Sequence record: OW849071.1
Source: a plasmid
DNA: 64,000 nt
Strand: one strand, 5' to 3'
The notes below the pieces were generated by a model. The model made no database searches. It saw nothing but the letters and a program-made list of their open reading frames with translations, and was not told the DNA's origin. Below are positions 4,085 to 17,699 of this stretch, in pieces; within the stretch, counting starts at the first letter, position 1; the number at the start of each line of letters is the position of its first letter. Both the position numbers and the translations under genes were made by a program.

Positions 4085-5809
4085 TGGGTCTTCCGCAACT
4101 TAGGTGGAGTTGTTTAAGCCAGAGGGCTCATGACTCGTCGTCGCAGTAACTCGAAGCCAGCTCGACCGTACATCTGCCGTTTCAGCATCTTCAGGCGGTT
4201 TACATGGCCTTCCACAACGCCATTACTCCATCTGCTGCTTATCGCTTCGTGTATTGCTGTTGCATCCGCTTCCATACCGGCCGCAACACGCTGAAGGTCA
4301 ATGAGCCCACTTTGACTGACGTCAGAGAACCATTGATTTAACTGCGATTTATTCTTCGTTTTCAACATTCGATAGAAGTCGAGCGACAGCTGTTGCGCCA
4401 TTTTCAGTTGCGGTTCTTTCTGGCACATCGATTCGATGAAGCGGGATGCATAGTTTTCTTCTCCTCTGATCATTCGCCAGGGCATTAACCAGCGGCTTAC
4501 TCTGGATGCTGAGGGGAGTCGAACTGGGGCGATAACGGGACTGTTAACCTGCTTACGCCACTTAGCCACAGCATCCCTGACCGTCGTTTCGCTCCCGGTG
4601 AAGCCAGCATTTACCATCTCCCGCCATAGCTGCCCGGCATTATGGTTACCGTTTATCCGTTGTTCTTCCAGCCATTCCTGCCATGGTTCAAGTAACCCGG
4701 GTCTGGGTGGCTTAGTTGATATTTCAGGGAACGCTTTTGACTGTATCCACCGGCGAACCGTCACCCGGGACAGTCCGGTGATACGCGATATTTCTCTTAT
4801 CCCACAACCCTTTTTATGAAGAGAGTCTACCTCAGCCCAGCGCTGATACCGTTTGTCACGTCGCTCTCGTTTAATACGTTCAGGGCGACGTAACGTTGAC
4901 GTTGGCACCAAAGACGCTTCAGCATTCTGTTTTTTGGGGGGATAACTCGGTGGCCACCAGTCGTATCAATGGCATGTGTCTGTACATCATGCGCTCCAGC
5001 GCATCACCAATATTCTTCAGCAGATGCCAGCGATCGGCCACCTGTATTGCCTGCGGTGCACCATCGCGAGCAGCTAACGCATAGATCCCCCCACGATCGC
5101 GTGAGACGACCTGTATTTCTGGGTATTTTTTGAACCATGCCGCCAGAGTGCGTTGCTCCCGGCCTGGCAGTAACACCAGGGGGCGATGGGTATCAAGATT
5201 TACGATCAGTGTGCCGTACCTGTGGCCCCGATGCCATGCCCACTCGTCAATACCAACATGCCTGGTCCGGTTCTCTGTTTGTTCCGGAGCTTGAACCACT
5301 CTGCGCAGTAAAGTATCCGCGCTGATCTGTATTCCTGAAGCTACTGCAGCTCGTCTCCCTGCTTCACCACCTGCGATAAGCCCCAGCTGATGCTGCAGAT
5401 TTTTCAGCAATGCAGAAGACTGCTGCTGCGGGCCTGCAAAGGGAGCAAGCGATTCAGCAAAAATTTTACGTGAACAGGAAGGGTTACGACAGTACCAGTG
5501 CCGGATGGCGAAGACTAACCAGAGGGCCTGGCCTGAGCATGGAAGATGCTGTACTCGCCTCCGCCGGCAACTATGAACAGAATGACTGTGCGTGAGGCAC
5601 TCAGGACATGATGCCGTTTTACGTGTGGCGCGGAGATGGAGGGTTATTCCATCAGTACCAGTAATCTGTCGGCAGGTTTGCCACCCGCGCGGTAGCTGTA
5701 AAAGTCTCTTAAGTGAGGCCATTTTGTTATACATAACTTAAAACAGCTTAGATCCTTGTTAACTAAAAAGTTTCATCAATTTTTGTCCACCTAAGTTGCG
5801 GAAGACCCA
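4085..5809 (-). mobile_element. ISL3-family insertion sequence (~1.7 kb)
   Basis: Perfect 22-bp terminal inverted repeats GGGTCTTCCGCAACTTAGGTGG (4086-4107) and CCACCTAAGTTGCGGAAGACCC (5787-5808). They enclose an ISL3-type transposase (zf-ISL3, HTH, DDE). No matching 8-bp flanking direct repeat was found. Confidence 0.75.
4114..5734 (-). pseudogene. ISL3-family transposase split into two overlapping frames (ORFs 4919..5734 and 4114..4911)
   Basis: The N-terminal ORF has a CxxC zinc finger and the first part of the DDE domain (GIDEWAWHRGHRYGTLIVNLD). The C-terminal ORF continues the DDE domain (SNGVVEGHVNRLKMLKRQMYGRAGF). The two frames meet inside a C6A6 homopolymer tract (plus-strand T6G6 at 4930-4941). 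A 1-nt change there would fuse them. Confidence 0.7.
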
Positions 5810-5811
5810 CT

Positions 5812-6305
5812 TTTTACCCGTTGTTGACAGCGGAGCACACCTTAACCCCGTGGTAAGCCTGATTTTTTATCTGATCGGGGCCTGCTCTTTCAGGGCAACC
5901 ATGAATTACATCGTGGCTCAGTTGTTAGGGGCCGGCGCTGCTGCACTGTGCCTGAAGGCTGTCTTTGGCCACTCCCTGCTGGCCGGGGTGACCCGGGTCC
6001 ATATGGGGGTATCACTGTACAATGCCTTTTTCATCGAAGGTGTCATGACTTTTATTCTGATTATGAGCATCCTAACGACCAGAAACCCCGCGATTATCAG
6101 CATTGCTGTTTTTCTTGATGCTTTTATTGGCGGGCCGCTGACGGGGGCAAGCATGAACCCGGCCCGTAGCTTCGGGCCGGCATTGGCCATGGGATACTGG
6201 GATAATCAGTGGCTGTACTGGGCCGCTCCGCTGTCTGGCGGGCTTGTAGCTGTTGCGTGCTGCCAGCTGTTTATGCCGCAACTGAAGTCACCCTCACCGG
6301 AATAA
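5812..6305 (+). pseudogene. MIP/aquaporin-family channel gene lacking its N-terminal ~60 codons (truncated by the IS)
   Basis: Both NPA boxes are present (SGAHLNPVVS and GASMNPARSFGPA). NPARS indicates the aquaporin rather than the glycerol-facilitator type. The homologous frame starts about 5 codons upstream of the first NPA, right at the IS inverted repeat. Confidence 0.6.
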
Positions 6306-6354
6306 AGTCCCTTCCAGGACAGAATGCCTCTGATGAACAGAGGCATTCTTTTTT

Positions 6355-6882
6355 TCAGCAACCCACTGTCCGGCTACGCCTTTCCAGAATGAGAACATCT
6401 CTCCATTTTCCGTTCATTTCACCCACTTTTTCCCGGCAGCCGACTTCCCTGAATCCCTGGCTGCGATGTAAAGCAACACTGGCCTGGTTTTCCGGAAAGA
6501 TGCCAGCAAGTAGCGTCCAGAAACCCGCACTTTCCGAGCCCTTTATCAGCCCGGAGAGCAAAGCCCTGCCCGCGCCTTTTCCCTGAAAATGAGTACTGAC
6601 ATAAATGCTCAGCTCTGCGACACCGCGGTATGCATGCCGGCGGGAAAAAGGAGATAGCGCAGCCCATCCCACCACTCTGTTATCAACAGTGGCGACGTAG
6701 CGGCAGTCCTGAAGATGCCCTTCATTCCATTCCAGCCACTCAGGTGCTGCGGTCTGAAAGGTGGCGTTCCCTGTTGCAATTCCTTCCTGATAAATTTCCC
6801 TGACTGCACACCAGTCCTCTTCGTGCATTTTTCTAATGATGATCTCTGCCATTTCTCTGTACCGTATGTTTGCTGTATTCAT
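6355..6882 (-). CDS. GNAT-family N-acetyltransferase (phosphinothricin-acetyltransferase-like)
   Basis: Acetyl-CoA-binding motif (HFQGKGAGRALL) and the PAT-like N-terminus (IRKMHEEDWCAVREIYQEGI). Confidence 0.8.
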   Translation of the reverse strand: MNTANIRYREMAEIIIRKMHEEDWCAVREIYQEGIATGNATFQTAAPEWLEWNEGHLQDCRYVATVDNRVVGWAALSPFSRRHAYRGVAELSIYVSTHFQGKGAGRALLSGLIKGSESAGFWTLLAGIFPENQASVALHRSQGFREVGCREKVGEMNGKWRDVLILERRSRTVGC

Positions 6883-7127
6883 AGGCAGTCAGAAAACGAG
6901 CCTGCCTGGGCTTCCCGGCGGCGGGACATAATGCGCCCGTCAGCAAAGGATGAAGGTCATTTTATTTTTAGCGGGAATCGGTTTCTACTGTGACGGATTC
7001 ATATGCATTTTTCCATATATATTGTGACGTACCTCATTTCTGAGAGGTATAAACACCGATCATGTTTTCTCCATGCCGCGTAAGTGTAAGGCCCCGGAGA
7101 TGGAGTCATATTATGGACGTGGTTGCG

Positions 7128-7157
7128 CTCACTATATATTTCTATTATTCTGGAAAT
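7128..7157. promoter_or_regulatory. Inverted repeat TATTTCTAT...ATAGAAATA upstream of the plus-strand arsR (candidate operator)
   Basis: 9-bp arms separated by 12 nt, 27 nt upstream of the arsR start. ArsR/SmtB repressors bind imperfect palindromes in their own promoters. Confidence 0.3.
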
Positions 7158-7183
7158 ATAGAAATAAAATTACGAGGAATGGG

Positions 7184-7510
7184 ATGGAGCTGAAAATCGC
7201 CGCGATGGTGCTGAAAGAACTTGGCCACACCACTCGTCTCGATATTTACAAAACACTCGTTAAGGCCGGACGTCAGGGACTGCCCGTGGGGGAACTGCAG
7301 CAACATCTCGCCATTCCGGCCTCGACCCTGAGTCATCATCTTTCATCGCTGATATCCGTCTCACTGGTTCGCCAGGAAAGGCAGGGGAGAACACTGTTCT
7401 GCCACGCCTGTTATGACAACCTTGCTGCATTGATTGCCTTTCTGACAGAAGAGTGCTGTGCAGACGAATATGCCCCGCCTGGTTTTATGTCACCACCGGA
7501 GAAAAAATGA
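7184..7510 (+). CDS. arsR: ArsR/SmtB-family metalloregulator (C-terminal cysteine type)
   Basis: Winged HTH (TRLDIYKTL...[21 protein letters not shown]). It lacks the ELCVCD helix-3 motif but has C-terminal FCHAC and EECCAD cysteines. Start overlaps arsH (ATGA). Confidence 0.8.
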
Positions 7511-8220
7511 TTGCTGAACTGAAAAATGTTGTTCCTGAGCTGTTTGATACAGGTCTCACCGGGGTCCGCCTGGGTGTAAAGACAGTTGACCATCCTCCCC
7601 GGATCCTGATGTTGTACGGTTCCGTTCGAGAGCGGTCCTACAGCCGTCTGGCCACCGAAGAGGCTGCCCGGCTTCTTACCGCCATGGGTGCGGATGTCCG
7701 CATCTTTAATCCTTCCGGTCTCCCTCTGCCGGATGATGCAGCGGATACGCATCCCAGGGTTATGGAACTTCGCGAAATGGTGCGCTGGTCTGAAGGGATG
7801 GTATGGTGCTCTCCTGAACGTCATGGTGCGATGACCGGCATTATGAAAGCCCAGATTGACTGGATACCACTATCAGAGGGCGCAGTACGCCCTTCTCAGG
7901 GAAAAACCCTGGCCGTCATGCAGGTCTGCGGAGGCTCCCAGTCTTTCAATGCGGTAAACCAGATGCGTATTCTTGGCCGCTGGATGCGAATGATTACTAT
8001 ACCTAATCAATCCTCGGTAGCGAAAGCCTGGCAGGAGTTTGATGAAGACGGACGGATGAAACCATCCCCGTACTACGACCGTATTGTGGATGTAATGGAA
8101 GAGCTGATGAAGTTTACCCTGCTGACCCGGGAGTATGCAGCGTATCTCGTCGATCGCTACAGTGAACGTAAAGAGTCGGCAGAAGCACTTTCCCGGCGGG
8201 TGAATCAGAGCAAAATCTGA
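7507..8220 (+). CDS. arsH: ArsH, NADPH-dependent FMN reductase (organoarsenical oxidase)
   Basis: Flavodoxin-like fold motifs ([25 protein letters not shown]) and length ~237 aa. Positioned in the ars cluster. Confidence 0.85.
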
Positions 8221-8228
8221 GGGCTGGT

Positions 8229-8774
8229 ATGAGTGATGTAACGGCATTCAACAACTGCATGAGCGTGTTCTGGCAACAGCATGAAGCAGAGCTCTCCCGT
8301 TTTCTGGCATCAAGGACAGGCGATCGGGAGCAGGCAGCCGATCTGCTTCAGGAAGTCTTCCTGCGCGCCCGGGCCTGTGCAGACCGCTTCTGTGAAATGG
8401 AGAACCCGCGGGCCTGGCTGTACCGGACGGCGAGGAATCTGCTGACGGATGAGTACCGTGCCGCCAGAGACGTCGTGGTGCTGGAAGACGAGATCCCGCT
8501 GCCTGACGCCTTCCATGAGGCGGTTTCAACGCTGGAGATTTGCCTGCCTGAAACCCTGCAGGCCTTACCTGACGAGGAAAGATGGCTGATAGAAGAGGCC
8601 GATCTGAACCGGCGTCCCCAGCAGCGCCTGGCCGACGAGCTGGGGATCACGCTGACGGCGTTTAAGTCGCGCCTGCTTCGCGCCCGGAAACATCTGAAGA
8701 AGACGATGACGGAACTCTGCCAGGTGGAAGTGGATGATGCGTCTTCCGTCTGCTGCCATAAAAAAATGGATTAA
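8229..8774 (+). CDS. ECF-type sigma-70 family sigma factor with a short Cys-containing C-terminal tail
   Basis: Sigma70 region 2 (LLQEVFLRA...AWLYRTARNLLTDEYR) and region 4 (RLADELGITLTAFKSRLLRARKHL). Tail ...ELCQVEVDDASSVCCHKKMD. Located between arsH and arsD with 8-75 nt gaps, so apparently co-operonic. Confidence 0.75.
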   Translation: MSDVTAFNNCMSVFWQQHEAELSRFLASRTGDREQAADLLQEVFLRARACADRFCEMENPRAWLYRTARNLLTDEYRAARDVVVLEDEIPLPDAFHEAVSTLEICLPETLQALPDEERWLIEEADLNRRPQQRLADELGITLTAFKSRLLRARKHLKKTMTELCQVEVDDASSVCCHKKMD

Positions 8775-8802
8775 CCGCGCATCTTTTTCCCGCCTCACTC
8801 GT

Positions 8803-8842
8803 TTACCTCAGTGTAAAGCCCCATCATTCAACACTGAGGTAA
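8803..8842 (+). promoter_or_regulatory. 11-bp perfect inverted repeat (TTACCTCAGTG ... CACTGAGGTAA) whose right arm contains the arsD Shine-Dalgarno
   Basis: Arms at 8803-8813 and 8832-8842 with an 18-nt spacer. GAGGT lies in the right arm, and the arsD ATG is 8 nt downstream. Confidence 0.35.
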
Positions 8843-8849
8843 ACAGTCC

Positions 8850-9212
8850 ATGTCAAAAATTGAGATCTTTGAAGCCGCAGGCTGCTGTGCGACCAGCAGC
8901 GTCGTGGTCAGCGATGAAGCCGTCAAATGGAACGCCAGCGCCGAATGGGCGAAAAAGCATGGTGTGAATATTCAGCGTTACAGCTTGGCAAAGAACCCGC
9001 AGCAGTTCCTGAATACGCCCGTCATCAGGGCCTTCCTGAACACGTCAGGAATGGAGTCCCTTCCCGCTACCCTGCTTGACGGCCAGCTGGTGATGGCGGG
9101 CAAGCTCCCGTCCCGGGAAGATATCGCCCGCTGGGCCGGTATTTCCCTCACGCAGGACTGGAATGAAGACAGCACGCAGCCGCGCTGCTGCAGCATTCCC
9201 CGTATGCCTTAA
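8850..9212 (+). CDS. arsD: ArsD-like arsenic metallochaperone/repressor, variant
   Basis: Alignable to R773-type ArsD (GCC at 12-13, LLDGQLVMAGKLPSREDIARWAGISL). It lacks the third Cys of the CC...C motif. C-terminal CC pair retained. Confidence 0.8.
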   Translation: MSKIEIFEAAGCCATSSVVVSDEAVKWNASAEWAKKHGVNIQRYSLAKNPQQFLNTPVIRAFLNTSGMESLPATLLDGQLVMAGKLPSREDIARWAGISLTQDWNEDSTQPRCCSIPRMP

Positions 9213-9230
9213 TCCCGGAGGAGCTCAACA

Positions 9231-10987
9231 ATGACGATGCCATTTTTACAGAATATCCCCCCGTTTATCTTCTTCACCGGCAAAGGCGGCGTGGGGAAAA
9301 CCTCTCTGGCCTGCGCGACGGCGGTATGGCTGGCTGACCAGGGCCGGAGAACGCTTCTGGTCAGTACCGATCCGGCCTCCAATGTCGGTCAGGTCTTCAG
9401 CCAGACTGTGGGCCACCGGATCACTGGTATCCGCACCGTGGAAAACCTTGCGGCAATGGAAGTTGACCCGATGGCGGCCGCGCAGGCTTACCGCGATCGC
9501 GTGCTCGATCCTGTTCGTGAACTGATGCCTGCCGATGTCATCAGCAACATTGAAGAACAGCTTTCCGGTTCATGTACCACGGAGATCGCGGCGTTTGATG
9601 AATTTACCGCGCTGCTGACCAGTCATGAACTGCGCGAAAAATATGATCATATCGTCTTTGATACTGCACCAACCGGACACACCATCCGTATGCTTGAGCT
9701 GCCGGGCGCCTGGAGCGGGTACCTCGATGCACATCCTGATGCTGCGGCGAACCTCGGCCCTCTGGTGGGGCTGGAGAAACAACAGGACCAGTACGCTGAC
9801 GCAGTGAAAGCCCTCTCTGATACGGCACTCACGCGACTGGTTCTGGTTGCCCGCGCACAGGCGTCGACCCTGAAAGAGGTCTCCCATACCCACGAGGAGC
9901 TGTCGGCTATCGGTCTGCAGCATCAGCACCTTGCCATCAATGGCGTGCTGCCTCCCTTTGCCGGTGAACAGGATCCGCTGGCGCACAGTATTCTGGCGCG
10001 GGAGGAACGGGCCTTACGGGCCATGCCTGAAAACCTCGCGCATCTTCCCCGGTCGATGCTGTATCTGAAGCCTTTTAATCTGGTTGGTCTGGAAGCCCTG
10101 AGGGCGCTGTTTACAGAGAGCACACTTGTTCTGCCGGATCCGGGAGCCACGCTCACGACGGTCGATTTACCGGAGCTTGCCTCCCTGGTGGAGGACCTCA
10201 GCCGAGCGGGAAAAGGGCTGGTCATGACGATGGGAAAAGGGGGCGTGGGGAAAACCACGGTGGCGGCTGCGGTCGCGGTCTCGCTGGCCAGACGCGGTCA
10301 TAAAGTCCACCTGACCACCTCCGATCCGGCAGCCACCTGTCTTACACCCTGGATGGCTCGCTGCCAGGCCTTCAGGTCAGCCGTATCGATCCAAAAGCAG
10401 AGACTGAGCGCTATCGTCGCTTTGTGCTGGAAAATCAGGGAAAAGGTCTGGATGAAGAGGGACTGGCGGTACTGGAGGAAGATCTCCGTTCCCCCTGCAC
10501 CGAAGAGATTGCCGTGTTTCAGGCATTCTCCCGGATCATCAAAGAGGCCAACGACCATTTTGTCATTATAGACACTGCGCCCACCGGGCATACGCTGCTG
10601 TTGCTGGATGCAACCGGGGCCTATCACCGGGAAATGGTGCGCCAGATGGGGCAGGCTCACGATCACGTGATAACGCCAATGATGCAGCTGCAGGATCCGG
10701 AGAAGACCAGAGTCATTATCGTGACGCTTGCCGAAACCACGCCGGTACTGGAAGCGGCCGGGCTGCAGCAGGACTTACGCCGGGCCGGGATTGAACCCTG
10801 GGCGTGGGTCATCAATAACAGCCTCGCGGCCGCGAAGCCGTCCTCCCCGTTCCTGGTCACCCGTGCCCGTCGCGAACTGCCGCTGATCGACGACGTTGCC
10901 GGGCATTATGCACAGCGCATTGCCCTGACGCCACTGCTGAAGGACGACCCGGTAGGCGTGGACCTGCTGGCTGAAATGGCGGGCTGA
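9231..10987 (+). pseudogene. arsA: ArsA arsenite-stimulated ATPase with an internal 1-nt frameshift (ORFs 9231..10571 and 10424..10987)
   Basis: N-terminal half intact (P-loop GKGGVGKTS, DTAPTGH, a second GKGGVGKTT). After ...HLTTSDPAA the frame is lost. Comparison with the intact minus-strand copy shows one C missing (expected gcc cac ctg, observed gcc acc tg at ~10332-10338). The C-terminal half then continues in the other frame to 10987. Confidence 0.8.
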
Positions 10988-11108
10988 CAGGTGGGGCGAC
11001 GCCCTACCTCCACTTAAAACATTTCCTTATACAGGTCATAAGATGAAGCGCTTAATCTGCCGTCGCGAATTCCGGTAGTGTGTCAGTCAACGTCACAGGA
11101 GTCATACA

Positions 11109-11645
11109 ATGCACATTATCAATGCTGAAGAGCAGCACATTCCCGCCATACGGCGCATTTACGCCCATCATGTCCTGCACGGCACAGGCAGCTTCGAGAC
11201 GGAACCCCCGGACACGCAGGAAATGCTTGCCCGGGTGAAAAATGTTCAGTCACGTGGATTTCCCTGGTATATCGCCCTGCAGGGGGAGACGGTCATCGGC
11301 TACTGTTATCTCTCCCGCTACCGCGAACGCCATGCCTACCGGTTTACGGTTGAAAATTCGGTGTACATCGATCCGGCTTATCAGCGGCAGGGGGGCGGAA
11401 AAGCCTTACTCGATCATGCCTTAACATGGGCCCGGTCTCAGGGATACCGCCAGATGATAGCGGTTGTGGGGGACAGTGCGAACGTCGCGTCTGTAGCGCT
11501 GCATCTTCGCGCCGGATTTACTGAAATCGGCACGCTGAAGGACATCGGTTTCAAGCATGGCCGCTGGCTGGACACGGTGTTGCTGCAGCGTCAGCTGGGA
11601 AAAGGGAGCTGTACGCTGCCGGACAGTCCGGTACCCGGACGCTGA
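11109..11645 (+). CDS. GNAT N-acetyltransferase of the phosphinothricin/arsinothricin-acetyltransferase type (ArsN-like)
   Basis: PAT-like motifs (IRRIYAHHVLHGTGSFE, AYQRQGGGKALL). Placed at the end of the plus-strand ars cluster. Confidence 0.7.
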   Translation: MHIINAEEQHIPAIRRIYAHHVLHGTGSFETEPPDTQEMLARVKNVQSRGFPWYIALQGETVIGYCYLSRYRERHAYRFTVENSVYIDPAYQRQGGGKALLDHALTWARSQGYRQMIAVVGDSANVASVALHLRAGFTEIGTLKDIGFKHGRWLDTVLLQRQLGKGSCTLPDSPVPGR

Positions 11646-11649
11646 GGCA

Positions 11650-11677
11650 GGAGAAAGGGGGCATCGCCCCCTTTCGG
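11650..11677. terminator. Hairpin between the convergent GNAT and arsC genes (possible bidirectional terminator)
   Basis: AAAGGGGGC-ATC-GCCCCCTTT stem-loop. The flanking U-tracts are weak. Confidence 0.4.
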
Positions 11678-12103
11678 TTATTTCAGCCGTTTCCCTGCCT
11701 CATCTACTACTTTCTCGCCGTCTTCCTTAGCAAATGCGCCTTTTTGCGCATCCGGAAGAATATCCAGTACCACTTCGGAAGGGCGGCACAGACGCGTTCC
11801 CAACGGTGTCACCACAATCGGACGGTTAATCAGGATCGGATGCTGAAGCATAAAATCGATTAACTGATCGTCAGTAAACTTATCTTCCTCAAGCCCCAGT
11901 TCTTCATAAGGCTCGACGTTTTTGCGCAGCAAAGCCCGGACTGAAATGCCCATATCTGCAATGAGTTTGACCAGCTCATCGCGTGACGGTGGATTTTCAA
12001 GGTAATGAATAACGGTCGGTTCATTACCACTGTTGCGGATCATCTCCAGCGTATTACGCGACGTGCCGCAGGCCGGGTTGTGATAAATGGTGATGTTGCT
12101 CAT
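11678..12103 (-). CDS. arsC: Arsenate reductase (glutaredoxin-coupled, R773 type)
   Basis: 141 aa, N-terminal MSNITIYHNPACGTSRNTLEMIR with catalytic Cys12. Confidence 0.9.
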   Translation of the reverse strand: MSNITIYHNPACGTSRNTLEMIRNSGNEPTVIHYLENPPSRDELVKLIADMGISVRALLRKNVEPYEELGLEEDKFTDDQLIDFMLQHPILINRPIVVTPLGTRLCRPSEVVLDILPDAQKGAFAKEDGEKVVDEAGKRLK

Positions 12104-12115
12104 ATCAGTATCTCA

Positions 12116-13405
12116 TTACAAAGTGAAAGAGAGACGTAGCGCCAGCGCTGCCAGCGTTACAAACAGCACAGGCAGAGTCATGACGATCCCGGTGCGGAAA
12201 TAGTATCCCCAGGTGATGGTCATATTCTTCTGTGAAAGGACATGCAGCCAGAGCAGCGTTGCCAGGCTACCAATAGGTGTAATTTTAGGTCCCAGATCGC
12301 AGCCAATCACGTTGGCGTAGATCATCGCTTCTTTGATAACGCCTGTTGCGGTGCTTCCATCGATAGAAAGAGCGCCAACCAGCACGGTAGGCATGTTGTT
12401 CATGATGGAAGACAGGAAAGCCGTCAGGAAGCCAGTACCCAGCGTTGCAGCCCAGAGTCCTTTATCCGCAAGTACATTCAGCACACCTGAAAGGTATTCG
12501 GTTAGCCCGGCGTTGCGCAGACCGTAGACCACCAGGTACATCCCCAATGAGAAGATGACGATCTGCCATGGCGCACCGCGCAGCACTTTGCCAGTTTTAA
12601 TGGCATGGCCTCGTTTAGCTACTGCAAACAGGATCACAGCTCCAACAGCCGCAATCGCGCTAACGGGAATACCAAGCGGCTCAAGGACAAAGAACCCAAC
12701 CAGCAGAAGTATTAAAACTATCCAGCCGGTTCTGAAGGTTGCCAGATCTTTAATCGCTTTTGCCGGTGCTTTCAGAAGAGCCAGGTCGTAAGTCGGTGGG
12801 ATATCCTTGCGGAAGAACAAATGCAGCATAACCAACGTGGCAACAATGGCTGCAATATCCACCGGCACCATTACCGACGCATACTCGGTGAAGCCCAGTC
12901 CAAAGAAGTCTGCAGAAACGATGTTAACCAGGTTGGACACGATAAGCGGCAGGCTGGCTGTATCGGCAATAAACCCGGCAGCCATGACGAATGCCAGTGT
13001 CGTGCCTTTGCTGAACCCTAATGCCAGCAGCATGGCGATGACTATCGGCGTCAGAATAAGTGCCGCACCATCGTTGGCAAACAGTGCCGCCACCGCTGCA
13101 CCAAGCAGAACGATATACGTAAAGAGCAAACGGCCACGACCGTTACCCCAGCGCGAAACATGCAATGCCGCCCATTCGAAAAAGCCGGACTCATCAAGCA
13201 GCAGGCTGATAATAATCACGGCAATAAAGGTCGCCGTCGCGTTCCAGACGATATTCCACACCACCGGAATATCGCCCACATGCACAACGCCAGATATCAG
13301 AGCCAGTCCCGCGCCCAGCATTGCACTCCAGCCGATCCCTAATCCCTTTGGTTGCCAGATAACCAAAACAATGGTCAGGACAAAAATAGCGCCTGCCAGT
13401 AACAT
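12116..13405 (-). CDS. arsB: Arsenite/antimonite efflux pump ArsB
   Basis: 429 aa, 12-TM ArsB-family sequence. Confidence 0.9.
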
Positions 13406-13452
13406 AAAACCTCCTGACAGGGCGACTTTGTCGCCCTGTAGATGTCAAAAAA

Positions 13453-15204
13453 TTAACTCATCAACTCTCTGAGCTTTTCAATACCGGCGGGCTCTGACGC
13501 CAGCACCGGAACAAGCGCTATACGGTCAGCATGCTGATTCTTAACAGCCTCAATCTGAGGCAGTTCCTGTTGAGCACGCTGACAAAGCAACGGAGAACGC
13601 GTATCCGCAATGGAAAGGCTGTTATTGATAATCCAGCCCCACGGATGAATCCCCGCTCTTTCAAGGTCAGCCTGCAGGTTTGCCGCTTCCAGCACCGGTG
13701 TGGTTTCAGGAAGCGTAACCAGCAGAACTTTGGTTCTATCCGGGTCCTGAAGCTGCATCATGGGGGTAGTAAAATGACCTTTACTCCCCATTTTTTTGGC
13801 AATCTCTCGGTGATAAGCCCCGGTCGCATCCAGCAACAGCAGCGTGTGTCCGGTAGGGGCGGTATCCATGACAACAAAGCGCTTACCCGCTTCACGAATC
13901 ACACGGGAGAAGGCCTGAAACACGGCAATTTCTTCAGTACAGGGAGAGCGTAAATCCTCTTCCAGTAACCGTTTCCCTGCTTCGTCCAGATCTCTTCCCT
14001 TCGTCTCAAGAACATGCTGGCGATAGCGTTCGGTTTCATCGTGAGGGTTGATGCGGCTGACCTGCAGGTTTTTGAGGCTGCCGTTCAGCGTTGTACTCAG
14101 GTGCGCAGCAGGATCAGAGGTCGTGAGATGCACGTCAAATCCCATGTCGGCCAGCCTGACGGCGATGGCGGCAGCCATCGTGGTTTTCCCTACACCACCT
14201 TTGCCCATCAGCATAATCAGGCCGTGTTCACTGCGAGCGATATCATCGACCAGGCCAGAGAGTGATAAGTTTTCAGGCGTGTACAGGATGTTCGTTACCG
14301 GGAGCGGTAATGCCTCAGAACGGGTAGCCAGCAGTCCCTTCAATGCTGAAACACCAACCATATTGACTGGCTGGAGTAACAGGGTATCTGTCGGTAGCTC
14401 AGATAAACCGGCAGGAAGATTTGCCAGTGCCTCCTGCTCACGTTGCCATATCGCCGCGGCCAGGGCGTCATGTTCAGCTTCGGCTTCAGGCAGCACACCA
14501 TTAATCACCAGATATTGATTTTTCAGGCCAATCTCAGCCAGTTCCTCATGAGTGCGGGCGACTTCCTGCAGCGTAGAATTTTGCAGTCGTGCAACCAGAA
14601 CCAAGCGGGTACGTTCAGGGTCGGATAACGCCTCTACCGCATGAGCATACTGCTCACGCTGCTTTTCCAGCCCGGCCATCGGGCCAAGACAGGAGGCACC
14701 ATCTGGATTGCTTTCAATAAAGCTACTCCAGGCACCAGGAAGCTGGAGAAGGCGAATCGTGTGGCCCGTCGGCGCGGTATCAAAAATGATGTGATCGAAA
14801 CGGGTCAGCAGGGAAGCGTCTGTCAATAAGCCGGTGAACTCATCAAACGCCGCAATCTCAGTGGTGCAGGCTCCTGAAAGCTGCTCGCTGATACTGTTAA
14901 CAACGTCATCAGGCAGAAGACCTTTGATAGGATCAACGATTCTGGCCCGATATTGCCGGGCGGCTTCCTGCGGGTCAATCTCCAGAGCAGAAAGCCCAGG
15001 AACTGCTGTCACAGGGCGAATCGTGTTACCGATAGCCAGATCGAATACCTGACCGACATTGGAGGCCGGGTCGGTACTGACCAGCAAAACCCGCTTACCC
15101 TGTTCGGCAAGGTGGATAGCCGTCGCGCAGGAAATGGAAGTTTTTCCTACACCACCCTTGCCAGTAAAAAACAGGTAAGGCGGGATATTCTGTAATAATT
15201 TCAT
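13453..15204 (-). CDS. arsA: Arsenite-stimulated ATPase ArsA (intact copy)
   Basis: 583 aa from MKLLQNIPPY. Duplicated halves, each with a P-loop and DTAPTGH signature. Confidence 0.9.
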   Translation of the reverse strand: MKLLQNIPPYLFFTGKGGVGKTSISCATAIHLAEQGKRVLLVSTDPASNVGQVFDLAIGNTIRPVTAVPGLSALEIDPQEAARQYRARIVDPIKGLLPDDVVNSISEQLSGACTTEIAAFDEFTGLLTDASLLTRFDHIIFDTAPTGHTIRLLQLPGAWSSFIESNPDGASCLGPMAGLEKQREQYAHAVEALSDPERTRLVLVARLQNSTLQEVARTHEELAEIGLKNQYLVINGVLPEAEAEHDALAAAIWQREQEALANLPAGLSELPTDTLLLQPVNMVGVSALKGLLATRSEALPLPVTNILYTPENLSLSGLVDDIARSEHGLIMLMGKGGVGKTTMAAAIAVRLADMGFDVHLTTSDPAAHLSTTLNGSLKNLQVSRINPHDETERYRQHVLETKGRDLDEAGKRLLEEDLRSPCTEEIAVFQAFSRVIREAGKRFVVMDTAPTGHTLLLLDATGAYHREIAKKMGSKGHFTTPMMQLQDPDRTKVLLVTLPETTPVLEAANLQADLERAGIHPWGWIINNSLSIADTRSPLLCQRAQQELPQIEAVKNQHADRIALVPVLASEPAGIEKLRELMS

Positions 15205-15221
15205 ATGTCCTCCTGACATAT

Positions 15222-15584
15222 TCAGCAACAGGAAGTATTACCACCACAGCAACTGGTGGGAGCTAACCCTACCTTCTCCAGCGGAATACCGAACCAGCGA
15301 GCCAGCTCAGCGCGTTTTGGGTATCGCCCAGCCATCACCGTTTCGCCGTCCAGCAACAGCAGCGGAAGCCCTTCTGCGCCGGATGCATCGAGGAAGGCTT
15401 TCGCTTTCTCATTGTGAACAAAGCTCATGGGCTGCTGCGCCAGGTTGTAACGTTCAACCTGTACGCCACGTCCTTTCAGCCACTGCATATCAGCAGAAAA
15501 ATCAACCAGAACCTGATCGACATCTGAACCACATACACCGGTACTGCAGCACATTGCCGGGTCAAACACCGTTAACGTCTTCAT
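15222..15584 (-). CDS. arsD: ArsD metallochaperone/repressor
   Basis: 120 aa. MKTLTVFDPAMCCSTGVCG (Cys12, Cys13, Cys18) and C-terminal Cys pairs. Confidence 0.9.
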   Translation of the reverse strand: MKTLTVFDPAMCCSTGVCGSDVDQVLVDFSADMQWLKGRGVQVERYNLAQQPMSFVHNEKAKAFLDASGAEGLPLLLLDGETVMAGRYPKRAELARWFGIPLEKVGLAPTSCCGGNTSCC

Positions 15585-15633
15585 TCTGAATACCTCATAC
15601 ATTCGAAAAAACACATATGTTCAGGCAAATTTT

Positions 15634-15984
15634 TTAGATGCAAACAGCCTTACCGCTACCAGAGCAGTTTGCCGATGCCAGCTTACGGGCGATGGCCTGT
15701 ACGTCGTCCTGTTGGCTTAACCAGGCCTGCTCAATCACCTGAGCAGCCCAGGAAGGAATATGCGGGGATAAGCGATAATGAACCCATTTCCCCTGCTTGC
15801 GATCCAGCAATAGACCGCTTTCCCGGAGCATTGCCAGATGACGGGAGATCTTGGGCTGGGACTCATCCAGCGCCGTGCAGAAATCGCAGACGCACAGTTC
15901 TCCCAGCTCCCTGAGCAGCAGGACAATACCCAGACGGGTTTCATCGGACAGGTTTTTGAAAAGCTTAAGGGCTGTAAGGGGCAT
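15634..15984 (-). CDS. arsR: ArsR repressor (R773 type)
   Basis: 117 aa from MPLTALKLFKN. Contains the ELCVCDFC As(III)-binding motif in the HTH region. Confidence 0.9.
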   Translation of the reverse strand: MPLTALKLFKNLSDETRLGIVLLLRELGELCVCDFCTALDESQPKISRHLAMLRESGLLLDRKQGKWVHYRLSPHIPSWAAQVIEQAWLSQQDDVQAIARKLASANCSGSGKAVCI

Positions 15985-16183
15985 TATTCCTCCTGTTCGG
16001 TTGCGTAAAGCATACGCCCGAAGACAAAAAAAACAACCATATATTCGGAAAATCGAATGTGTGAAAGTGTCAGATGACGCTGTCACGCTGGTATACGTCC
16101 ATTACTTTCCGGGGAAAATACATGTGTGTTACAGAGATCCGACTTAGCCAGAAATCGGATCTGCGCGGCGGGAAACCGGTAAG

Positions 16184-16341: not shown

Positions 16342-16611
16342 ATGGATGAGAAAGTATTCTTTCACCTGAGTTATGAAACCATGCTTGGCGACACGGAAGA
16401 TTTTATTAACGCGTGTCTTGAACGGGCAAACCGTGCGGACTGCAATGATGCCGATGCGGAGATTGCCCGGGCACGCAGCGCGATCGAACTCTGGTACCAC
16501 CTGGCGATGGCGGGCCGTGCCCCGGAAGACGTCGCCGACAGGGACCATCTGCGCCTCACCGGAATGCTCCTGCGCGCTCCCACAGCAGAACAACGTTCAT
16601 GGCAGCAGTAA
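16342..16611 (+). CDS. Hypothetical protein (89 aa)
   Basis: ATG ORF following the repeat region. No homology that I recognise. Confidence 0.4.
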   Translation: MDEKVFFHLSYETMLGDTEDFINACLERANRADCNDADAEIARARSAIELWYHLAMAGRAPEDVADRDHLRLTGMLLRAPTAEQRSWQQ

Positions 16612-17174
16612 CAACCTCCCGCAGGCCGTCGCCGCTGCAGCGACGGGTACTGATTGTGCTGGCCGCCCTCGATGCGAAACGTCCGGGGCCGGTGGCGACG
16701 CGGGATATCGAGCGGGTGCTGGAGCAGGGCGGGGACGCCCCGGTGTACGGACCGAACCTGCGCGCCTCCTGCCGGCGCATGGAAGCCGCGGGCTGGCTGC
16801 GCACCCTGCGCGCGCCGAACCTGCAGCTGGCCGTCGAGCTGACGGAGGCCGGTCGCGGCATTGCAGAACCGCTCTTCCAGGCAGAACGCGAGGCTGAAAC
16901 GGCACGACAACGACTGACCGACGTCCGGCGTCTGCCGTTACGCCAGACGGCTGCCGGTGACGCGGTGGAGCTGCAGCTGGGTGACGGCCATTACACCATC
17001 AGGGAAGCGGCCTACGTGATCCGTCTGGACGGTACCACCTGCCTGCAGCTGACGGATGCCGGCGGCATACGCCGGATAAAAGAGGGCGATCCCCTGCAGG
17101 TGGCCAGCTGGTATCAGGCCTGTTTTGATGCAGGCCTGCCGGTCATCGTTCAGGTGAATGAGAGCCGGGACTGA
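16599..17174 (+). CDS. Hypothetical protein with a probable N-terminal winged-helix domain, in a very GC-rich gene
   Basis: 191 aa. N-terminus RRPSPLQRRVLIVLAALDAKRPGPVATRDIERVLE. GC content far above its neighbours, and the many overlapping spurious ORFs on both strands are typical of high-GC coding DNA. Confidence 0.5.
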   Translation: MAAVTTSRRPSPLQRRVLIVLAALDAKRPGPVATRDIERVLEQGGDAPVYGPNLRASCRRMEAAGWLRTLRAPNLQLAVELTEAGRGIAEPLFQAEREAETARQRLTDVRRLPLRQTAAGDAVELQLGDGHYTIREAAYVIRLDGTTCLQLTDAGGIRRIKEGDPLQVASWYQACFDAGLPVIVQVNESRD

Positions 17175-17204
17175 TCGCCACCACACAAGGAACAGGAGCA
17201 TAAA

Positions 17205-17699
17205 ATGAAAGTCACTGAACCCGGACTGAATACGCTGATCGATAACCTGAACACCCTGATTTGTGAGGACAGCCTGCTCACGCGCCAGGAGCGTGAAACC
17301 CTGGTGCGGGCCGTGGCGGCCATCGGCGCCATGAAAGCACGCGTCAGCATGAAAAAAGGCGAAGCGCCGACCGTTGCCAGACGGGAAAAAAGGGAGAAAA
17401 AAGACCGCCAGCCTGATCCGCGTTTTCCGCGAGCCGGTCATCCCTGGCAGGAAGACGAAAAAACCTTACTGAGTGATGCGCTTGAACCGGTCCCGGATGA
17501 AGAGATCGGTACGCATCTTTTCTGGCTTTCCGAGAAACTGGGCAGAACGCCTTTCAGTGTTGCTTTCCAGATCGCGGCAATCAGGGAGCTGCAGGACGGC
17601 TGGGAGGAGCAGTTCAGGGAGATTTCGGATAAAATTCGCTTGTCCGGCCTGAGCATCAGTGATTATCTGAAGCAGAACGGCACGGGCCATAACGCCTGA
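17205..17699 (+). CDS. Hypothetical protein (164 aa)
   Basis: ATG ORF with an upstream AGGA. Charged, Lys/Arg/Glu-rich middle region. Confidence 0.5.
   Translation: MKVTEPGLNTLIDNLNTLICEDSLLTRQERETLVRAVAAIGAMKARVSMKKGEAPTVARREKREKKDRQPDPRFPRAGHPWQEDEKTLLSDALEPVPDEEIGTHLFWLSEKLGRTPFSVAFQIAAIRELQDGWEEQFREISDKIRLSGLSISDYLKQNGTGHNA

Follow-up and report, generated by a model that had tools for sequence, protein, structure and literature searches.

The plasmid stretch analysed here (record OW849071.1, 64,000 nucleotides; hereafter the window) carries on its plus strand, at 7184-11645, an arsenic resistance (ars) cluster with the gene order arsR-arsH-sigma-arsD-arsA-GNAT. We give slightly better than even chances to the view that this cluster is a partly decayed second ars module, wired as a cascade of two regulatory steps and, probably, adapted to trivalent organoarsenicals. 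In the first step, read from the anatomy of the cluster, a two-cysteine repressor of the AfArsR type would control a promoter/operator around 7137-7166 that drives arsR, arsH and the gene of an extracytoplasmic function (ECF) sigma factor. In the second, read from comparative genomics, the sigma factor would recognize a promoter at 8779-8804 and transcribe arsD-arsA, probably through the GNAT gene to a hairpin at 11653. Cysteine patterns and the gene content of relatives further suggest that the two-cysteine ArsR, ArsD and ArsA, together with ArsH and, in complete relatives, ArsP, would serve methylarsenite or aromatic trivalent arsenicals (As(III)) and not arsenite. To our knowledge, ars operons have been described as controlled by ArsR-family repressors. 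The arrangement of sigma factor, promoter and hairpin, and its wide distribution in ars islands, are new here; the literature searched contained no description of them, nor of any ECF sigma factor in ars clusters. Were a sigma factor with a recognizable target promoter to operate in many proteobacterial ars islands, ars control would gain a positive layer, possibly gated by a ligand, and the pair would offer ready-made biosensor parts.

Gene set and ECF sigma factor of the module

The cluster opens with arsR (7184-7510, plus strand; NF033788, 63.3 bits, cut-off 55). Its product has the ArsR/SmtB winged-helix fold, its best match in the PDB is AfArsR (6j05, E = 1.4e-11), and its C-terminal pair Cys91-Cys92 aligns with AfArsR Cys95-Cys96. 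Overlapping arsR by 4 bp, arsH (7507-8220, plus strand) encodes a member of the organoarsenical oxidase/NADPH-FMN reductase family (TIGR02690, 401.6 bits, equivalog cut-off 292.25). A gap of 8 bp separates it from the sigma gene (8229-8774, plus strand), whose 181-residue product holds the Pfam domains Sigma70_r2 (PF04542) and r4_2 (PF08281) and resembles SigZ/ECF238 factors. Next comes a variant arsD (8850-9212, plus strand), which we class as an ArsD at family level only: it scores 100.3 bits against Pfam ArsD (PF06953; threshold 27) and 80.6 bits against NF033727, below the equivalog cut-off of 90. The arsA pseudogene (9231-10987, plus strand) and a GNAT gene of the phosphinothricin N-acetyltransferase (PAT) family (11109-11645, plus strand; PDB match 9igk, a phosphinothricin N-acetyltransferase, E = 2e-51) complete the set. 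It converges with a canonical arsR-arsD-arsA-arsB-arsC operon (11678-15987, minus strand), for which AMRFinder gives 100% identity calls in an identical plasmid record. By the list of open reading frames (ORFs), the plus strand of the 64-kb window holds no arsB, acr3 or arsP.

The original prediction for this region had named a C-terminal-cysteine ArsR, an ArsH, an embedded ECF sigma gene and an ArsD short of one conserved cysteine, had noted the missing pump and the facing classic arsRDABC, and had treated the two operons as unrelated; on all these points it is borne out, the plus-strand set being a distinct ars module and not a duplicate of arsRDABC. The combination of organoarsenical-associated genes that it pointed to likewise stands (ArsH, the PAT-type GNAT and, in relatives, ArsP). 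Its ArsN-like GNAT is indeed a PAT-family enzyme, but the match to the ArsN1 family B profile (NF040504, 147.3 bits) falls below the cut-off of 210 and amounts to a family-level resemblance.

Relatives at about 80% identity, in which arsA is intact, were found on an IncC/IncN plasmid of E. coli (L002), a Raoultella plasmid (L003), Salmonella SGI-4 (L004), genome contigs of Hafnia, Citrobacter and Kluyvera together with a Klebsiella chromosome (L005-L008), and a pESI-type megaplasmid of S. Infantis (L085). In addition, a scan for homologues of the sigma factor, limited to one genome per species, gave 80 loci; 76 lie outside the enterobacterial clade and are referred to below as distant loci.

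Among NCBIfam profiles the sigma factor best matches SigZ (TIGR02959), with 138.3 bits below the cut-off of 168.65. Its conserved residues are Cys10, Cys55, Cys105, Cys164 and the tail Cys174-Cys175-His176. Across 53 homologues, down to 30% identity, Cys164 is invariant and Cys55 and Cys105 are nearly invariant, and the tail is retained down to about 38% identity. The protein thereby shows the short C-terminal extension with conserved cysteines that marks ECF238-type factors. In ECF238 members a short cysteine-rich extension of this kind stands in for an anti-sigma factor, and the activity of CorE and CorE2 is switched by metal binding (PMC7826278; PMC8999054). No anti-sigma gene adjoins the sigma gene, whose neighbours are arsH and arsD with no further family-matched ORF between. 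The protein is thus alike to CorE/CorE2 of Myxococcus xanthus and SigZ of B. subtilis (ECF238, formerly ECF44 and ECF24) in its two ECF sigma domains, the lack of an anti-sigma partner, the short cysteine-containing C-terminal extension and a conserved linker cysteine. In contrast to them, it scores below the SigZ cut-off, carries in the linker a single conserved cysteine (Cys105, xCLP) instead of the CorE-like CXC motif, has a tail of the form C-x9-CCH, and is encoded in ars islands with ArsP-family permeases instead of beside copper or zinc genes. An AlphaFold2 model from the 53-sequence alignment gives confident domains but a predicted template modelling score of 0.44. Like CorE-type factors, the sigma factor is probably activated by a thiol-reactive ligand. 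ArsD was considered as an anti-sigma factor and set aside: it has no ZAS-type HxxxCxxC motif, and arsD in the distant loci is upstream of the sigma gene or absent.

We assign the sigma gene to the ars module because it starts 8 bp after arsH, has a ratio of non-synonymous to synonymous substitution rates (dN/dS) of about 0.1 and is directly followed by a motif that elsewhere marks the target genes of its family. Its homologues are located in ars islands across Beta- and Gammaproteobacteria, and the distant loci usually read arsR, arsC, acr3, (arsD-arsA), sigma, ArsP-family permease, small thioredoxin-like protein. Where 5 kb was available on both sides (47 distant loci), an ArsP-family permease was present in 41, and bona fide ars genes (Acr3, ArsA, ArsD, ArsC or ArsJ) lay within 5 kb in 26. 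The thioredoxin-like protein (82 residues, CxxC; TIGR00412, 'MTH895/ArsE family') is encoded 3′ of the sigma-linked permease in 24 loci (L010-L082, cluster c4), so that permease and thiol protein form a conserved pair.

Candidate promoter, hairpin and operator

In the distant loci, a conserved motif of ECF type, TGCATCCTTTT-N~11-TCGTCT, is located ahead of the permease gene. A dyad search of the 26 loci with the permease directly 3′ of the sigma gene recovered TGCATCCTTTT, a spacer and TCGTCT in about 24, and 48 sites of fixed spacing, all from distant loci and nearly all just upstream of the sigma-linked permease, yield the consensus cTGCATCCTTTT-N9-tTCGTCTnC. A CGT-containing -10 element at fixed spacing is typical of ECF promoters. 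The motif stands upstream of the permease whether the latter is adjacent to the sigma gene, divergent from it or kilobases away; it thus stays with the target gene wherever this lies, and does not follow the end of the sigma gene. In the window, the motif is found as GCATCTTTTT-N10-TCGTTT at 8779-8804 (plus strand), in the 75-bp gap between sigma and arsD. This is the one exact match in the 64 kb, against 0.01 expected, and the motif occupies the equal position in all enterobacterial loci (L001-L008). The promoter that this sigma factor recognizes is, we propose, most likely 8779-8804, with its target in Enterobacterales switched from the permease to arsD-arsA. A relaxed search of the window, allowing two mismatches, produced three extra matches, no clear excess over the 1.46 expected, and 5 of 100 shuffles gave at least four matches. 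A sigma-70 promoter scan gave none on the plus strand, with counts no higher than in shuffles, and dyads upstream of the sigma genes in distant loci were GC-rich noise only, with no sign of autoregulation.

Individual distant loci vary in the placement of the motif. In Marinobacter lutaoensis one copy (L078, 4157-4182, minus strand) lies upstream of arsH and not of a permease, which suggests that the regulon can include arsH in some species. Five loci with sigma and permease apart (L011, L032, L041, L057 and L079) have two copies, one of them upstream of the permease; the second precedes another gene, which is directly 3′ of sigma in L011 and L032 but not in L041, L057 and L079. In L011, an OsmC-like gene is nearby.

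Overlapping the predicted promoter is a perfect 14-bp inverted repeat (8801-8844, plus strand; arms 8801-8814 and 8831-8844, 100% complementarity, 16-nt loop), with an RNA fold of -23 kcal/mol (z = -5.1). Its 5′ arm overlaps the -10 element and the predicted start site, its 3′ arm holds the GAGG ribosome-binding site of arsD, 9 nt before the start, and in L002-L008 the arms are conserved and the loop is variable. Read-through RNA from upstream would carry the complete hairpin and bury the ribosome-binding site of arsD; RNA from the sigma-dependent start, about 6-8 nt past the -10 element, would begin within the 5′ arm, form no stem and leave the site free. This geometry points to the hairpin as an insulator between the upstream promoter and arsD-arsA. 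The repeat, whose arms do not vary, could instead be a DNA operator. As an intrinsic terminator it was set aside, there being no T-run after the stem, and an Rfam scan of 6800-11800 returned two chance-level matches only and assigned the hairpin to no known RNA family.

For the first step of the cascade, an imperfect inverted repeat is located at 7137-7166, 18 bp upstream of arsR (TATTTCTATTATTC/GAAATATAGAAATA, 86% complementary). The ATTATTCTnGAAATATAGAA core upstream of arsR is conserved in L002-L008 despite a synonymous divergence (dS) of about 1, and we regard the repeat as a probable ArsR operator that coincides in part with the promoter of the operon.

Two published RNA-seq data sets bear on this arrangement. 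On pBIC1a, a pKPN3-like plasmid of the window's type from K. pneumoniae ST258 that was measured in E. coli without arsenic, the expression values are 21 for arsR, 39 for arsH and 47 for sigma, then 9 for arsD, 4 and 4 for the arsA fragments and 12 for the GNAT gene (PMC6286996). In SGI-4, the baseMean values are 1611 for sigma, 28 for the arsD variant, 822 for the arsA variant and 293 for the GNAT gene (PMC7716197 supplement). In both data sets the RNA level falls sharply at the sigma-arsD junction, so that the six genes do not form one uniformly expressed operon. Abundant sigma RNA beside low arsD RNA also indicates that sigma RNA is insufficient for arsD expression, which fits a sigma factor needing activation. 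On exposure of SGI-4 to 5 mM copper, the sigma-arsD-arsA-GNAT set changed less than 2-fold (log2 fold change of 0.4-0.7 for arsD, arsA and GNAT), whereas canonical arsRDABC rose by 3-5 log2 units (PMC7716197 supplement). Cross-induction by copper in SGI-4 was hence confined to one ars operon (PMC7716197 supplement), and the lack of a response of the other set means that copper is not the signal.

These data also bear on the possibility that sigma factor and promoter answer not to arsenic but to a thiophilic metal (Zn, Cd, Cu or Ag), much as CorE/CorE2 do, their presence in ars islands being mere co-location of metal-resistance genes. The closest described mechanism, that of CorE/CorE2, does sense Cu or Cd/Zn, PF03773 permeases include the SO_0444-type Cu/Zn exporter family, 8 of the 47 distant loci have a CDF transporter within 5 kb, and the cluster in the window adjoins pco and sil. 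Yet 5 mM copper did not induce arsD, arsA or GNAT of SGI-4 despite abundant sigma RNA, and Acr3, ArsA, ArsD, ArsC or ArsJ stands by the sigma gene in more than half of those distant loci (26 of 47). Moreover, the motif in Enterobacterales precedes arsD-arsA, the predicted target, and the sigma gene follows arsH under a putative operator of the ArsR type. We consider a metal response of this kind improbable.

Two-cysteine arsenical sites

The three predicted arsenical-binding proteins of the module depart from their canonical counterparts in the same way. In ArsR, the third ligand of AfArsR (Cys102) has no counterpart in five of the seven enterobacterial copies (the window, L002, L003, L006 and L007). 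The ArsD variant retains Cys12 and Cys13 and has lost Cys18 along with a two-residue deletion, in all seven clade copies, whereas the site CCSTGVCG is kept in all canonical and distant copies compared; a 2007 study by Lin and colleagues is said to have assigned the As(III) site of ArsD to Cys12, Cys13 and Cys18. The metalloid site of R773 ArsA consists of Cys113, Cys172 and Cys422. In the ArsA clade of the module, Cys113 and Cys422 are present and Asn replaces Cys172 (DAAANLGP) in seven of seven copies, whereas GASCLGP, with Cys172, is kept in every canonical or distant copy compared. The three-cysteine sites of the minus-strand ArsD and ArsA are intact.

According to PMC11868830, SpArsR, which is without the third cysteine, responds to methylarsenite and not to arsenite, since methylarsenite (MAs(III)) needs just two thiol ligands. 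Methylarsenite selectivity, in ArsR, is the only functional precedent for the two-cysteine pattern. It is the same cysteine loss in all three arsenical-binding proteins, taken together with ArsH and ArsP, that points to organoarsenicals, and this pattern fits the original suggestion of a role other than simple As(III) efflux. The coordinated loss also suggests that the ArsA ATPase system may be re-tuned from arsenite to methylarsenite and roxarsone derivatives.

With arsR-arsP-arsH of Shewanella putrefaciens 200 (SpArsR; Chen, Nadar and Rosen 2017, as summarised in PMC11868830), the module shares an AfArsR-type repressor with a vicinal cysteine pair and no third cysteine, the linkage to arsH and, in complete relatives, a divergent arsP. 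Unlike the S. putrefaciens system as summarised there, the module adds the ECF sigma factor, the two-cysteine ArsD/ArsA and the PAT-type GNAT; its repressor, likened to SpArsR by sequence, has an extra clade-conserved Cys73, and the window is without arsP. With R773-type arsRDABC it has in common the ArsD and ArsA families, the latter with two homologous halves, P-loops and DTAPTGH motifs. In contrast to that type, its ArsA (frame repaired) and ArsD are 61.5% and 41% identical to the canonical minus-strand proteins, respectively, and are without Cys172 of ArsA and Cys18 of ArsD; the repressor is of another type, ArsB and ArsC are missing, arsA is a pseudogene, and arsD-arsA is preceded by an ECF-type promoter motif and not by an ArsR operator.

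Two relatives, L002 and L085, display the order arsP(-) | arsR-arsH-sigma-arsD-arsA. Their divergent permease belongs to PF03773 and has the TPFCSCS motif of ArsP; it shares this family and the conserved C(S/T)C motif with Campylobacter jejuni ArsP, an efflux permease for methylarsenite and roxarsone. In L085, arsP is the only transporter annotated within the surrounding 15 kb, and neither arsB nor acr3 is listed there, in a PLSDB gene table that is incomplete. Castillo and Saier (2010) noted arsA with arsP but without arsB or acr3 in a few genomes and proposed an ArsA-ArsP partnership (PMC2963123). The L085 neighbourhood is alike, with arsA and arsP and no arsB or acr3 listed; the window differs in having no arsP, and the ArsA-ArsP link is, in that work, a proposal. 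In the complete relatives ArsD/ArsA may energise ArsP. At least 80% of the complete module is present in 120 plasmids. Since relatives carry the divergent arsP, the lack of an own efflux pump, correctly foreseen for the window, is a secondary loss and a state of the Klebsiella lineage.

The remaining enterobacterial loci admit a different reading, in which the set is an auxiliary arsenite module: ArsD/ArsA would supply the convergent ArsB with another ATPase and chaperone under separate regulation, ArsH would be a general redox helper, and the losses of the third cysteine would be tolerated drift. Six of the seven enterobacterial loci (L003-L008) indeed have the plus-strand-type set tail-to-tail with arsRDABC and no arsP, and the variant ArsA retains both P-loops, both DTAPTGH motifs, Cys113 and Cys422. 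SGI-4, in which the sigma-arsD-arsA-GNAT portion is present, raises tolerance to arsenite, arsenate and antimony (PMC7716197), which arsRDABC alone may explain. However, a single module has lost the third ligand in three different proteins and the canonical copies next to it have not, arsP is the sole transporter listed in the 15 kb around the pESI-type module, and copper did not co-induce the set with arsRDABC. On balance, we regard an auxiliary arsenite function as rather unlikely.

The two-step cascade can be extended to a bolder form, which we likewise hold to be unlikely. Here, the sigma factor would itself be a direct sensor of trivalent arsenicals through Cys164 and the CCH tail, and with ArsR would constitute a feed-forward switch, acting on ArsP-family permeases across Beta- and Gammaproteobacteria and, in Enterobacterales, on a two-cysteine ArsD/ArsA that forms an ATP-driven pump for methylarsenite and aromatic arsenicals with ArsP. 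If true, this would be the first arsenic-responsive sigma factor.

Several observations count against the proposed cascade and its tuning to organoarsenicals. The equivalent of ArsR Cys102 is kept in L005, L008 and all distant homologues, and in the module's own repressor Cys73 could act as third ligand. The step from the cysteine patterns to organoarsenicals is an analogy with ArsR alone, and we know of no MAs(III)-specific ArsD or ArsA. The enterobacterial copies are closely related, and the shared cysteine losses thus correspond to roughly one event per protein. The absence of arsP from L003-L008, where the set faces arsRDABC, fits cooperation with ArsB just as well. As for the sigma factor, residues 172-181, which include the CCH tail, have a predicted local distance difference test score below 50 in the AlphaFold2 model, and a cysteine cluster is not demonstrable in it. 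The promoter assignment draws on motif conservation and position; the enterobacterial motif has three departures from the consensus (CGCATCT for TGCATCC and CGTTT for CGTCT), and its -35 part is without the AAC typical of many ECF promoters. Finally, arsA RNA in SGI-4 is about 6-fold above arsD RNA per base, which a simple arsD-arsA transcript does not explain.

Decay, distribution and surroundings

The plus-strand arsA of the window is a dead gene, split into ORFs 9231-10571 and 10424-10987. According to tblastn with an intact homologue, the frame changes at residue 367/368, and DNA alignment reveals a 1-bp deletion at 10333/10334 (GGCAGC-CACC versus GGCAGCACATC in three intact relatives). 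One restored base gives a 585-codon ORF without other stops, with P-loops at residues 17 and 335 and DTAPTGH at 144 and 448; as they stand, the two fragments score 575 and 280 bits against TIGR04291, both below the cut-off of 650. The original prediction of an ArsA paralog about 70% identical to the minus-strand copy missed the break in the gene and set the identity too high, the computed value being 61.5%, and in annotation the plasmid's second 'arsA' is best treated as a pseudogene. In the window, where arsP is absent and arsA inactivated, at most ArsR, ArsH, the sigma factor, ArsD and the GNAT are still able to act, and arsenite efflux is left to the convergent arsRDABC.

Compared with relatives, all six plus-strand genes have dN/dS values of 0.02-0.16 at dS of about 1 (arsH 0.02-0.06, sigma about 0.10, GNAT 11109-11645 about 0.1). 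The module was thus under selection until recently, the lesion in arsA is recent, and the sigma and GNAT genes, both intact, are not the decayed remnants that the original prediction had allowed for.

The composition of the cluster, first taken to be unusual, is ordinary in occurrence: window positions 5700-11700 recur at 99% identity or more in 930 plasmid records, nearly all of them conjugative Klebsiella IncFIB/IncFII plasmids. The window segment is therefore pKPN3-type backbone, adjoining pco and sil, and the cluster is among the most frequently sequenced Klebsiella plasmid segments. The region is 100% identical in more than 900 pKPN3-like Klebsiella plasmids, the exact 446-residue truncated ArsA is present on at least 1000 contigs, and the truncated arsA allele is fixed in this plasmid lineage.

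Such uniformity invites the view that the whole plus-strand set is a passenger without function, carried along by a successful plasmid backbone, its conserved intergenic features being leftovers. A frameshifted arsA, the absent arsP, a truncated MIP gene and an ISL3 element inserted alongside would all suit a passenger, as would the fixation of the broken allele in more than 900 plasmids and the low expression without inducer. This view seems quite improbable to us, as there is a single lesion and the other five genes are intact with the low dN/dS values given above, and as the promoter, hairpin and operator sequences are all intact. In addition, ArsH by itself reportedly suffices for resistance to trivalent organoarsenicals (Chen et al. 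2015, cited by PMC12504007).

The complete module is found on pESI of poultry-associated Salmonella Infantis and the decayed one on dominant Klebsiella resistance plasmids. Genes that a published association study gives as enriched in the US REP clone include arsH, sigma, arsD and arsA (PMC12504007); in the literature searched, the modules of Klebsiella, R478, SGI-4 and pESI appear as listed genes without analysis. On the S. Infantis megaplasmid (L085) the complete module adjoins IS26 and blaCTX-M-65. There, a winged-helix gene alone is annotated after arsA (9441-9809, minus strand), followed by IS26, with no TauE or GNAT gene listed. L002 has genes for a small winged-helix protein and a TauE/SafE-family exporter between arsA and GNAT (11441-12684, minus strand), neither of which is present in the window.

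At the downstream end of the window's cluster, a GC-rich terminator-like hairpin (11653-11675) lies between the stop codons of the GNAT gene and arsC; it was the sole such site on the plus strand in the promoter/terminator scan of 6800-11800, which spans arsR through GNAT. Upstream, a second PAT-family GNAT gene, resembling ArsN1 family A, is divergent from arsR (6355-6882, minus strand; NF040503, 148.4 bits, below the cut-off of 170), and its PDB relatives are phosphinothricin-type acetyltransferases. Both GNATs are assigned to the PAT family and fall below the curated ArsN1 cut-offs; arsinothricin is a putative substrate only. Farther upstream, a 5′-truncated MIP/aquaporin gene (5796-6305, plus strand), whose Pfam MIP match covers profile positions 65-219 of 222, adjoins the end of an ISL3 element. 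In relatives, an ISL3 transposase is annotated over window positions 5700-5814. No intact version of the MIP gene was seen among 25 records viewed as a spread sample of 1045 plasmid records, seven records at 60-90% identity lying outside the sample. The truncated gene is possibly the remnant channel of an ancestral island, and together with the second GNAT gene upstream of arsR it may be left over from a larger arsenic island with a channel protein. The ISL3-family transposase whose end abuts the truncated MIP gene (4114-5734, minus strand) is split into ORFs 4114-4911 and 4919-5734 and is probably itself a pseudogene. Beyond the canonical operon, just past its arsR, the GC content reaches 0.64 at 16500-17500, where small ORFs are annotated as hypothetical in the identical plasmid.

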